Shown here one piece after another: positions 53,401 through 62,400 of a stretch of DNA of 64,000 nucleotides. The notes below the pieces were generated by a model. The model did no database searches, was not told where the DNA came from, and saw nothing but the letters and a program-made list of their open reading frames with translations. The stretch's first letter is position 1, and each line of letters begins with the position of its first letter. The translations under genes and the position numbers were made by a program. Source of the DNA: Acanthaster planci (taxonomy: Eukaryota); the NCBI RefSeq assembly GCF_001949145.1, contig NW_019091356.1:1302789-1366788 (forward strand), given 5' to 3'.

Positions 53401-56400
53401 GATTAACTGACTCGGTCCAGAGTAAAGACGTGAATGTTTGCAGGGGTGGGTGGTGAGTTTATTGAGTTGTGGTAACATCATACACACATGTCTCAAGAAT
53501 CAAGTGAGCTTGTGATCACTTTTTAAATCATTTATTCAGTTAACCAAGCACGAAGTTCATACCATTATGTTCAAATCTCCCAATGGCATACAAGGGCATC
53601 TCATGCAGCTACCATACGACCGACATCAACCTATATATAGAGAGGAGACAGTAAGAGGCAGTCACAGTTTCAGAGGTGGGAGGAAAACCTCAGAGAAGAA
53701 ATTTTGTGTAAAAACCCAAGGAATGAGGGAGGTACGGAAACCCAACTCCACATGTGGACCGAGCTGGGAATTGAACCCGGGCCGCGGAGGTGAAAGGCGA
53801 GGAAAGACCTACTTCGCCAACTTGACTCCCCATTACTTGACATTTTGAAAAGTGTACGCTGTTCTGTATGTCTCCTATAGACACTACTCAACAGTCCTTG
53901 GTAACTGCAACCCAAGTTACATCCATAAAACAAATAGTAAAAATGGAAAAATTATCTTTTAAACTAAATGTGGCTGAAAGTCGATGATGTCCTACACTCT
54001 TTACTCTTTATGTCCACTGTCTCCCCCGTTAGGTTTTTCTGGAATCCAAGGAAAACGTAACCTAAGAACCACTTGTCCACCCAGTAACCCCCCCTCATCT
54101 CCTATCTTCCTTTCAGGACCCCTCAGCTACCAGCCCATCCCTTTCAGCCAGTCAGGCAACCCTCTCATGAGCACTGTGGCTTTCCTAGCGTCAGCCGTGG
54201 ATCCCAGAGTGGCTAGCGCTGCAGCCAAGGCAGCCATCGGTAAGGATTCCAATGACTGAAACTGACAGATATGCTTAACGTGTCAAACATTAACCCTCCT
54301 TTAGTTTTACAGCACAAATATGCACAAGTGCCCAAGGTCACTCTCTTGCATGTTGGTGTAGTGCACAACAGGACACAGCTGTGCTTCTTTGAGGTGTTTA
54401 CCAAGTGACCCAAAGAGTGACTCCAGCATAGGAGGGTTAATAGACATAAATGAAGAAAAGTCAGCTTGTAGTGTGCTGCCGACTTTTTTTAGCTTTATTT
54501 AAGCCTCATACTCTTTTCATAAAACATATGGAGGGTTTGTTTGATTTTTATGAATGTTTTTCATACCAATGGTAAACAATTTCAGTGACAAATGTTTGAC
54601 TGATTGAAGCAATAATGGTATATAATAAGAGACAATAACATTGCCAAAAATCTGCTTTTGATGTCATGGCTGCTTCACAAGGATTACAGCTACCAATAAG
54701 AAACTACGCAGATTTTTTGGAAAGGTAGATGTTGTGGATTTTGCATTTTCTGCTTGTAATTTGTTGTGACCTTTAAACCGACACATTTCCAAGCAATTTT
54801 GCTAAGAAGCAAATGTATCATTACGTTTTTTAACCCAACTATACCCAAATCCTTGAAAACCCATCAAATGGATCTGTAGGATTTTGATAAAGGTAAAGCC
54901 TGGCCTTTAATACTTCACACAGGGCTCTGTTTCCTTTGAACATTGGAAGTACAGAGAATTTGCCATTGGATTCCTACACAACGGATGATTTTGGCAGATT
55001 CCTTTGAGAAATGACCAGGGCAGAGTTGTTTATAGAGAATGAGTTGCGACATGAGCGTCTCAATTGTTGGAACCAAAATGGTGGACTATGCGTCAGTGCA
55101 CACATAACGAACAGCCATTTTGGTTCCAAAATCTGGAGTTGGCACTACCGTCTCTACAAACGGCTCTGGTCCAGGGTGTCGAGATTGAAGCCAATTTCTC
55201 GGACCGGTTGTCATTCCAGAGGAGTTCAGCAAGATGAAGGAGGAAGTGCCCACGGCTCTGGTCCAGACCCACATCAAGCGCATCCAGGACTCCACCCGGG
55301 CCGGCATGAGCACCGACAACCACCTGCTAGACGCCAGCGGAATCGCCGGCACCATCCCCGAACCCGAGAGGATGGAGGAAGGGGCAGAAGTGGGCAAGAC
55401 GGAGGCAGGAGGCACCGACGGAAGCGGGGAAGGAGCAGCTGCTACCAGCAAGGAGAACGCTGACAAGGTAGGCTTTGTGTGTGCCTCTTGTCATAGGTGG
55501 ATGAGGAAGTTGAGATCAGTTCTCTCTGCAAATCCCCTGGTTGCCAGCTGCATTTTAGAAATCAAAAGGAGGATTGTTATTGGGATATGTATTCAAAATG
55601 CTTCTAAACGCTTTTGTAACAAGCCAGGATGACGTTACTAAACTAGAAATTTGAGGCTTTTATGTCAAAGAACAGTGTTAGCATGGATCACTGAAACAGC
55701 TTCAATAGTTTTCTAAAGATGGTCATGGCTGTACGCCCCTTAACATAACCCCCTTCGTCCCAATTGCTGTGAATTTCTGAGGGTTTGTTGTGTCTACAGA
55801 AGTGAGACAACTGTTGCAACTGGCAAAGTCATGAATTTTAATTGTCCTGAAATATTTGATGCTTAATTTCACCCTTACACAAACTCACATCTGGGAAGAA
55901 TATGCTTCAGAATAGGAATAGAATAAAAAAAAATGTGCCTTGTGTTGCTTTCTACCCAACCACCCCTATACTGTCTTACAGGACTTGAATGCTAAGACAA
56001 TCACGCAGGTTACAAGGAAAGATTCCATAAATGGGAAAAACAGAACATGTCAACATTGTCAGGGTTCATTCTCTGCTCAGAGCTTGTTCTGCCGCTTTGC
56101 AACATTAATAATTTTGCAGGGTTACCATATTTGTTGTTCCATGGAGAAAAGAATTTTAAAAATTCCCAAAAGAAGCCTCGCACTGCATAGAGACAGCACT
56201 TTCCTTCATCTGCAAATGTTTAAAGTAATTGTTCTAAATGCCCCGAGAGGCACCTCATAGCAGGGTGTTGAAAATACCCAGGTTCCCTGAAAAAAAAAAA
56301 TCTCCCACTGTGCAATAAATCCCTTGTCTCCTGGTCCAAAAACCGCCACAGTCCGGTGCGTGGAGACACTGTCAATTCAATGGAGTGGTGAGGACAGCTT

Positions 56401-59400: not shown

Positions 59401-62400
59401 TTCAGCAAGATTTGTAGGCCTATGAGATGCAGGAGAAAAATTCCAAGCCTGCCCTTAAACCAAGCTATCAGGGGGCACGGTTGATTGATAGTCTGTTCCA
59501 TCTGGCACAGTGGAGCCAGCCAGGTTCATGAACATGGCAATCCAGGGACATGGCCAGGGTCGGCCTTAATGGGGTTAATTGTCAGAGGATGGGTGGCCCC
59601 GTTGCCCCGTCCCCAGACTTCAGCTGTTACAAGGGGAATGCATGGCACTTTGGGATTAGAGAGGTTGGCGGAGGAGACAACTCCTGTACCTCTGTCTCCG
59701 TGGGGTGTCACCCTGATGGTGTGAGGCGCCTAATGTGGCCTTCGCAGACTCACACGTAGCTTAGTTCTGGCTGGTGGAACTGTGGAACATTGCTTTAAAG
59801 AGATGACTGAACTCAGTTGCACTCACCTTTAGCAGAAACTGGGTTGATTTTTTTTGGGGTACACATTCATTCGAAAAGTAGTCAAATGCATTGATGCGTT
59901 AACCATGTCACACTCACATGGCACATCCTTGACTCCCACAACTTGGCCACACAGTGATCTCAAAAGTCCTGCAGGGAATCGAATTTATTCATTTTCTTCT
60001 GCCTATTGTAAACATGAACAAATTGGTTAAGCTGTTTTCTCCCCGTCTGCTCATGGCATTTCCCTTATGCATGATTTCGTAAAACACTACCATTCCGTGC
60101 TTTTGCAAACAACGTAGCTCAAGGTAGATTTCTCACTGGGTCGGAATAAATCTTGTGCACTGATGGGTAAATCCCCACAGTTCAGTGCAACAAAGTTACC
60201 TCTGTTTCAACCCTGAAGTGGATCAACCAATTTGAGACTGAGCGTTCAGTCTGGTCGTGTAGCTAGGAGTTAAGTGAAACATGATCATTGGTAGATATTA
60301 AATGTTTCGAAAGGGATGTCTTATGAGGGATAAATTGTGTCAGCAATGTAGACCAGCTCACTCTCTTGTACAGTCTGCATTGAGGGGACCAGTCATAAAT
60401 CCTGTTGTTTCTAATCGTCAGTATTCTTTGTCAGGTTATTTGTAATTTGTTTTTATATCACTGGTTAATAAAATGGAACGTATTTTGCAGTAGAGGAATT
60501 CAAATTAGAAAAACCTTGTTGTAGAAACTTTTTTATAATTTTTTTAAACCACAAGTTTTGTTATGCATAGGGAAATCATAAAGAGAGTTCATTACAAGCT
60601 TTATCCCTCTGGAGTTCAGCGGATAAAAAGACGCGGTCGGTGCCTTGAACGTATCATTGGCTTTCACTGCTGTCTTCTGGCCTCCCCCAGGAAATCAAAG
60701 TGAAAGAGGAATCGCAAGCCACCGAAGAAAAGGAAAAAGATGGAGGCGAAGCCATGGAAACACAGACCCCCTCTCCTCAGAAGATCCCCGAGGGGGAGGG
60801 GCCAGAGAAGAAGGCAGAGGAGGCCGCTGAGAAGATGGAGACAGGAGAAGTAAAGGTTGAAGGTGCCACGATGGAAGCAAAGGTAACATGAGAGTTCAGA
60901 ACATTTAAGTGACGTAAAACAAAACTTAAGTTCACAAAACATGAAGTTGGTAACCTTATCCGAGTTCAGATACCAGCAGGAAAGGAGTAGTTTATTTATA
61001 TTTACTTTTGTTTGTTTGTTTGTTGGGGTGTTTGTTTGTTTTACCCCGCCCACCCCCAGGTACATTTGCTTGGAACCTTAAGCAATCTTTCTAAATCAAT
61101 TACTTTGCAGCAAACTATTAACACATTCACATATTAACAACTTTCTGTTGCTTGTAACTTGATCACGGCTAGGATCTCTCTTTCTCAGTCCTCTCGAAGC
61201 TCCCTGTAGATATTGAAGGGTCTCCATTGGTTTAGCATGAATTACGAAAATGCCTTGAAACTTAACCCTCAAAGTGACGAGTTATTTTCACCAATCAACA
61301 GGGGGTTGAGGGAACTTGGCTCTGCCACAAAGAGTTACTCTAAAAACTCTGAATGGCTCAACTTCTGAAAAAAATGCACTGCAGCGATATCAGAAAAAAA
61401 GTTGTCTCTTTCAGGGTAAAACTGATCAACAGCTATTATCCTTGTCACTCATTTTTGGGGCAGCTGATAAGTTGAGAGACCGTTCTTTTTAATTTGTTTT
61501 CTATGAAACAGGAGGCAAGCAAGGAAGATTCCCAAGAGGCCAGCGAGCAGAAGCCAGAGGAGGACTCCGCTTCCAAAGAGGAGACACCCGATGGTGAGAC
61601 GACAGAGAAGAAGGAAGGAGAAGAGGCCAAGGAGGAGGACAAGGCACCCAAGGAGAAGCCAGAAGCCGTCAAGAAGCACGAAGAGGAGCTGTCGGAAGGG
61701 AATGTAGCCTCGGCAGCTGCTGCCGCACTCGCTGCCGCTGCGGTCAAAGCAAAGGTGAGAGGGTCGAATCCTACCAGGGTTTGTCTTCATCACTGGAAGA
61801 TAATTTCATGAGCAGTTTCACGTGCATGAAAGTTATTTTGAAACTACATGGGACTGAGGGTAGTTTTCTATGAATATTCACGTGAAAAAATCCTCCATTC
61901 TAAATTCTTTGGGTAATTAGACAACATCTTTCTTCAACAAGAATTAATGCCTTTTGTTGCCAGCACTTGGCGGCGGTCGAGGAACGTAAGATCAAGAGCC
62001 TGGTCGCCTTGTTGGTGGAGACGCAAATGAAGAAATTGGAGATCAAACTGCGGCACTTTGAAGAACTGGAAACGATCATGGACAGGGAGAGAGAAGCGGT
62101 AAGTTGACCTGGCACACTCACCTCCCCAGAGTAGGAGAATGTCTTAATCGTGCATGAGCAAAATGTCAACAGTTGGAATATTCTTGGACCGGGAGCGGTT
62201 TTTGCGTTTTGCCAAAGAGCAGATGTGTCAAATAAGCTGTGCCCAAACAGATAAGCAGGAAATTAATATCACACAGGGGTGGGAACCAGTTTTCACCTCG
62301 CAATAGGTCTCTCCGCCTCCGTGAAAGATATAATGTTTTAATCTACATGGAATCATCACTCCACTTCTTGCTTCTCTGTTACTTCCTCCAGCTGGAGTAC

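Follow-up and report, generated by a model that had tools for sequence, protein, structure and literature searches.

Long-range base pairing within introns is known from several systems. Pairs of conserved complementary regions (PCCRs) constitute one such class of intronic pairing, according to the available parts of PMC6027157 and 10.1101/2020.05.05.076927. The available text of PMC10789245 describes BRD2 and BRD3, whose poison exons, which are conserved, observed and minigene-tested, are controlled by paired intronic regions, and among invertebrates the splicing-linked long-range intronic pairings of Dscam and Nmnat are covered in that of PMC6027157. These known structures are mostly pairs of short boxes. 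Here, we analyzed a window of 64,000 nucleotides from the sea star Acanthaster planci that carries the SMARCC gene, and found that two complementary strands lying 2.7 kb apart in its intron 18 are non-random. Our preferred reading, based on modeled folding and held at a probability of roughly 0.45, is that, in the pre-mRNA, the middle of intron 18 adopts a 2.7-kb Y shape that a 43-bp duplex closes and that acts on splicing. The element was not described in the accessible literature on SMARCC intron structure, poison exons or PCCRs and on conserved noncoding or intronic elements of Acanthaster, the supplements of which may list SMARCC pairs. The term "smarc" is absent from the main text of preprint 10.1101/2020.05.05.076927, and "smarcc" was not found in the accessible text of PMC13317027; the portion of PMC3556307 available to us names human SMARCC2 near short ultraconserved elements.

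The gene in the window is A. planci SMARCC, with the protein encoded by exon 18 being 78% identical to that of Patiria miniata and 77% to that of Asterias rubens. Spliced alignment revealed 23 introns in the coding region, of which 22 span 157-980 nt and intron 18 alone reaches more than five times the length of each of the others. The exons and the intron at issue are as follows.

55220..55467, plus strand: SMARCC coding exon 18, a 100% match to an A. planci SMARCC2-like protein.
55468..60690, plus strand: intron 18, 5,223 nt, GT..AG, supported by junction reads, contigs and spliced alignment.
60691..60882, plus strand: SMARCC coding exon 19, supported by protein match, spliced alignment and RNA junctions.

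Efficient splicing of intron 18 was evident from 10, 22 and 5 junction reads in the raw RNA runs X22, X23 and X24, respectively, and from contigs of X16 and X17. A previous examination of the letters alone (the sequence-only reading) had singled out this intron as unusually long and poor in transposons, and both descriptions held; self-BLAST detected a single 66-nt repeat fragment. That fragment, at 58901-58966, recurs at 50575-50640 and 51974-52039 with 82% identity, thus occupying three SMARCC introns, and is also found elsewhere in the genome. DNA-contig depth was nearly flat across intron 18, and the contigs showed few short foreign matches. The Rfam 15 covariance models gave no match within the intron at E values up to 5, none of its 11 open reading frames matched Pfam at cut-off, and sea star proteins displayed no insertion at the exon 18-19 junction peptide. 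Two metagenome scans were searched for an orthologous intron; one yielded no relative, and the other contained 10 loci that, judged by their match ranges, lack intron 18.

The predicted core comprises a closing duplex and two arms.

56697..56771, plus strand: predicted 5' strand of the closing duplex, with helices of 7, 5, 15 and 16 bp and a 28-nt insert at 56728-56755.
59377..59423, plus strand: predicted 3' strand of the closing duplex, in which 59377-59407 is a single unbroken 31-nt paired run.
56853..57503, plus strand: predicted left arm, closed by the 14-bp helix 56853-56866/57490-57503 in the minimum free energy (MFE) structure, probability 0.99.
57681..59350, plus strand: predicted right arm, with helices 57681/59350 (10 bp), 57703/59285 (10 bp) and 57725/59271 (17 bp) in the MFE structure, probability 0.96-0.99.

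Two helices, 56713-56727/59393-59407 (-28.4) and 56755-56771/59377-59393 (-27.3), are the strongest unbroken ones in the intron; they are adjacent and share a common 31-nt strand, and the addition of two outer helices brings the duplex to 43 bp, consisting of 34 Watson-Crick and 9 G-U pairs. The stacking energy of the adjacent pair, -55.1 kcal, was reached by none of 450 global and none of 450 local shuffles of the whole intron, the best antisense value being -39.8, nor was it reached in 300 further local shuffles at gap limits of 30, 60 and 100. No match was therefore obtained in 1,200 shuffles, 750 of which preserved local composition. Given the core stem, the arm-closing helices 56853/57503 and 57725/59271 together scored -50.2 against -39.3±3.5 in shuffles (2 of 164 matched). 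In the construct 56690-59430, all closing helices were sampled at probabilities of 0.86-1.0, with pair probabilities here and elsewhere deriving from sub-constructs of the intron. The core MFE of -753.6 was lower than in all seven local shuffles (-717.2±13.4), and its confident long-range pairs exceeded those of all three shuffles examined, one of them narrowly. The sequence-only reading had envisaged the entire intron as a Y-shaped RNA with selected, G-U-rich pairing on the sense strand; a Y survives at 56697-59423, built as a duplex with two arms from other helices, and not as the listed 5-kb outer stem, while the case for selected pairing carries over to the central 2.7 kb in other registers and is lost for the 13 helices listed. 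The core duplex lies outside the band of that stem and is incompatible with two of those 13 helices.

Natural variation provided a data set independent of the folding. The comparison was based on contigs of one other animal (run X13), representing one haplotype, from which 27 intronic substitutions relative to the window were compared against the predicted pairs. In the whole-intron MFE structure, these substitutions break 8 pairs against 13.5 expected for the same base changes at random positions (P 0.011), and within the core interior only 3 of 17 do so, with 8.0 expected (P 0.005). Weighting by the ensemble gave 3.96 against 7.98 expected (P 0.002; trinucleotide-matched P 0.0014), local nulls yielded P values of 0.0008-0.003, and thinning to 10 single-nucleotide polymorphisms (SNPs) gave P 0.0003. 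The antisense control was neutral (7 broken vs 6.7 expected, P 0.70). Confident longer-range pairs contained 1 SNP with 2 expected, so the avoidance signal speaks for the fold in general and not for the long-range helices alone. Two stretches of the intron were free of substitutions.

55966..56898, no strand: substitution-free relative to X13, overlapping a GC-rich block at about 56220-56950.
58812..60462, no strand: substitution-free relative to X13, overlapping a GC-rich block at about 59450-59950.

Both strands of the core duplex fall within these stretches, whose occurrence under uniform placement has P 0.001, or 0.04 with clusters merged. The core duplex and its two arms, as modeled, probably form in vivo under purifying selection. 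A word share of 0.79-0.86 in other animals was considered as a sign of constraint and discarded, as it agrees with the divergence of X13 (approximately 30 substitutions, 8 indels). Single-base indels relative to the window at 55838 and 58741, each present in two independent runs, represent either common alleles or assembly errors. A usable diversity value was not found in the accessible text of the starfish population genomics paper PMC12330192.

The alternative that survives best is that intron 18 is an ordinary long intron in which all complementarity, including the core duplex, arose by chance, aided by the two GC-rich blocks flanking its center. Several observations weigh on this side and against a selected fold. 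The adjacent-helix statistic was devised after the fold had been seen, following more than 10 statistics without signal, so that, after correction, we would put the probability closer to a few percent, and the best shuffled pair came to -54.6 against the observed -55.1. Local structure is weak, with a mean z of -0.15 and 2 of 68 windows at z<-2 compared with -0.7 and 8 of 43 in the other SMARCC introns, and it is also weaker than in most blocks of the 64,000-nucleotide window. Neither the number of helices nor the strongest individual helix stands out, and scans for contiguous duplexes (loops ≤10 nt), which are unable to join helices across a 28-nt insert, found nothing above shuffles. A three-way-junction score was matched by 12 and 20 of 450 shuffles, and the ensemble of one of three shuffles was as well defined overall (522 vs 503 pairs; long-range 142 vs 175). 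The variation test draws on a single animal, four of the 17 changes in its interior set are incapable of disrupting a pair, and substitution-free stretches of this kind appear in 13-22% of simple coalescent simulations. The folding excess of 2.6-kb pieces of the intron ranged from -12 to -28, within the -8 to -98 of five control blocks (two local shuffles each). For the whole intron, whose folding energy the sequence-only reading had proposed to compare with shuffled sequence and the reverse strand, the MFE of -1477.1 did lie below all ten shuffles (five global, -1430.5 to -1464.1; five local, -1424.1 to -1461.9) and the reverse strand (-1429.0), corresponding to hand-computed z values of about -2.2 (global) and -2.7 (local), and such an excess alone is not unusual. 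The chance explanation is nevertheless opposed by the absence of any shuffled match to the helix pair, including under preserved local composition, and by the strand-specific avoidance of pair-breaking substitutions in independent data; we regard it as unlikely, though it deserves to be taken seriously. Separately, local multi-hairpin domains at 58352-58505 and 60133-60296 reached z values of about -3.9 and fold on both strands; they were rejected as special RNA domains owing to this both-strand folding and to a value equalled by 1 of 15 shuffles.

A second alternative holds that selection acts on a single Y comprising all 5.2 kb of the intron, that its outer stem joins donor and acceptor, and that the sequence-only reading erred only in its registers. 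That reading had listed 13 segment pairs in two outer arms.

55526..56701, plus strand: proposed 5' outer arm, listed helices unsupported.
59320..60490, plus strand: proposed 3' outer arm, listed helices unsupported.

All 13 pairs are present at their positions, one shifted by 1 nt. Together they account for 4.5% of the intron; their duplexes range in energy from -3.0 to -17.2 kcal/mol, and their oppositions comprise 107 Watson-Crick, 10 G-U, 3 A-C and 3 others. As a stem beyond chance, they found no support. The proposed band contains 15 helices at or below -14 kcal, with 15.8±3.3 in 20 global shuffles, 24.6±4.6 in 20 local shuffles and 24 on the reverse strand, and its best nested chain with G-U allowed scores 396, with 367±38 and 406±47 in shuffles and 432 on the reverse strand. 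Restricted to Watson-Crick pairs, the chain of 227 was reached in 0 of 25 global and 2 of 25 local shuffles; the band is the best Watson-Crick band of the intron, and shuffles choosing their own band match it in 9 of 30 and 13 of 30 cases. Once G-U pairs are admitted, the sense strand has its best band at 116,583 (0 of 12 global and 2 of 12 local shuffles) and not on the proposed diagonal, which comes out best on the antisense strand. None of the 123 proposed positions is paired as listed in the whole-intron MFE structure, and forcing the 117 canonical pairs raised the energy from -1477.1 to -1390.2, a penalty of 87 kcal/mol. The gain from arm-to-arm interaction was -13.9, with -14.0±3.9 and -13.0±8.5 in 16 shuffles each. 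Ten of 11 testable helices had probability 0 in the outer construct, in which 56445/59513 reached about 0.5, and helix 56248/59731 attained 0.58 in a smaller construct. The segments also mostly fall short of the long helices that characterize PCCR-type structures. Complementary segments picked by eye along a diagonal are expected by chance, and the 13 proposed here look like chance.

The claimed extension of the stem to the splice sites fared no better, as the flanks outside the core duplex gained -70.7 against -73.7±5.8 in shuffles, 13 of 20 of which were as good. In favor of a Y spanning the whole intron, the core duplex is nearly symmetric, lying 1,229 nt from the donor and 1,267 nt from the acceptor, the substitution-free stretches extend outward to 55966 and 60462, and 3 of the 10 best duplexes are nested near the proposed diagonal (2 of 34 global and 0 of 34 local shuffles, with the band fitted afterwards). 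Set against this are the lack of gain in the outer flanks, outer helices that vary with the construct, and substitutions outside the core, 5 of 10 of which break MFE pairs, rendering this extended form improbable.

It is more improbable still that the core duplex has no role as RNA and is what remains of a transposon or of a DNA inverted repeat that has since decayed, even though the right arm contains repeat fragments and the core pair score is exceeded in 3 of 22 genomic block-strands of the window, all at DNA inverted repeats. G-U to A-C oppositions stand at 8:20 and 13:9 in true repeats compared with 7:1 at three core sites (DNA-scored, with the sites picked for RNA stability and hence biased). 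The duplex domain drops from -56.8 kcal on the sense strand to -35.8 on the antisense strand, a loss of 21 kcal, and no listed foreign contig piece overlaps either duplex strand.

The RNA data bear on the least probable alternative, in which the intron undergoes retention, persists as a stable RNA once released, or is edited by ADAR, possibilities that the sequence-only reading had raised. About 18% of each of the three raw RNA runs was read, and their library selection is unstated. In all three, raw depth was zero over 55840-60447, against 37 junction reads. Unspliced intron fragments were scattered at depth 2-5 in the contigs of X16, X17 and X20, with exons at 33-53. No A>G change was among those listed for the contigs of X16, X17 and X24, which drop rare variants, nor was an alternative junction among those listed at intron 18 for the contig runs. 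The intron contains no long perfect duplex, and its longest unbroken helix measures 17 bp. Given this zero or low intronic depth, retention and stable intronic RNA are unsupported in the examined libraries, and heavy editing likewise, leaving this explanation highly improbable despite the scattered unspliced contigs; rare isoforms sensitive to nonsense-mediated decay (NMD) may be compatible with the same libraries.

How the Y closed by the core duplex might act on splicing is suggested by a candidate exon.

56631..56813, plus strand: predicted cryptic exon of 183 nt with an in-frame stop at codon 9, from a splice-site matrix built on 22 introns.

Its donor is the top-scoring internal GT, and it contains the 5' strand of the core duplex, an arrangement that suggests the masking of a poison exon. 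By analogy with the paired intronic regions of BRD2 and BRD3, the core duplex 56697-56771/59377-59423 would loop out half of intron 18 and sequester the body of this exon, and such masking could tune the unproductive splicing of a BAF core subunit. This specific combination of looping, sequestration and tuning is doubtful as yet. Inclusion of the predicted exon had no read support (0 vs 37 skipping reads), although NMD would hide it, and the intron holds fewer stop-containing exon candidates than shuffles do (2 vs 6.2, 60 shuffles), both of which count against a poison-exon role. Looping out 2.7 kb would leave approximately 2.5 kb, longer than any other intron of the gene, so that simple bridging of the splice sites is incomplete without an outer stem.

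The segment 56444-56455 can pair alternatively with the best internal donor region at 56807-56818 (12 bp, -23.0), crossing the core duplex, or with 59504-59513, which covers a cryptic acceptor at 59510 (one of the proposed helices, probability about 0.5). In the model, this may constitute a possible switch and is possibly due to chance. A far-reaching version, in which the whole 5.2-kb intron would be one selected branched RNA, conserved in sea stars, that sets BAF core subunit dose via unproductive splicing by alternating between two folds (56444-56455 paired either to the cryptic donor at 56814 or, over the cryptic acceptor, to 59504-59513), strikes us as a long shot. Microexons of 6 nt at 60118-60123 and 27 nt at 55981-56007 were also considered and rejected for weak acceptor scores, having neither reads nor an annotated isoform. 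The former is an in-frame, microexon-like AG-6 nt-GT arrangement with an upstream UGC (donor score 7.4, acceptor score 2.8, no read support).

Other features were observed in the window. Introns 16-17 (53600-55140) contain repeats at which reads from other loci raise the RNA depth to very high levels, and at 61330-61510 RNA reads and a contig extend into intron 19 at its 3' end, which suggests either an additional acceptor or partial retention. A single Gln at residue 273 (around 49425) distinguishes the annotated isoforms X1 and X2, a difference that likely reflects a tandem acceptor. An exon of a FAIM1-family gene (Pfam PF06905, E 1e-26) lies on the minus strand at 2948-3310, and pairs of decayed DNA inverted repeats, in which G-U and A-C oppositions are mixed, occupy approximately 3642-4640 and 11178-15002.

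Compared with the systems described above, the SMARCC core resembles PCCRs in that its intronic pairing spans less than 10 kb and includes unbroken helices of at least 12 nt, namely the 15-bp and 16-bp helices on one 31-nt strand, a combination found in none of the 1,200 shuffles, both far past the -15 kcal cut-off used for PCCRs in the available text of 10.1101/2020.05.05.076927. It differs in that PCCRs are defined by cross-species conservation, whereas the SMARCC core is known from A. planci sequence alone, and in that the looped-out interior seems to be folded into arms of 0.65 and 1.7 kb. As in BRD2 and BRD3, long-range intronic pairing in a chromatin-regulator gene lies by a stop-containing exon, which in SMARCC is only predicted; unlike in those genes, the exon has no inclusion reads, and the duplex sits inside the predicted exon and not in the flanking introns. 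With Dscam and Nmnat it shares long-range intronic helices in an invertebrate, although the SMARCC exon 18-19 junction has no known alternative or mutually exclusive exon. The core candidate supplies exact helices for genome alignment and population SNPs. If correct, a selected, branched fold on the kilobase scale in an intron of a BAF core subunit would add both a larger size class and the echinoderms to the range of long-range intronic structures, and it may be a sign that splicing has long served to control chromatin-remodeller dosage.

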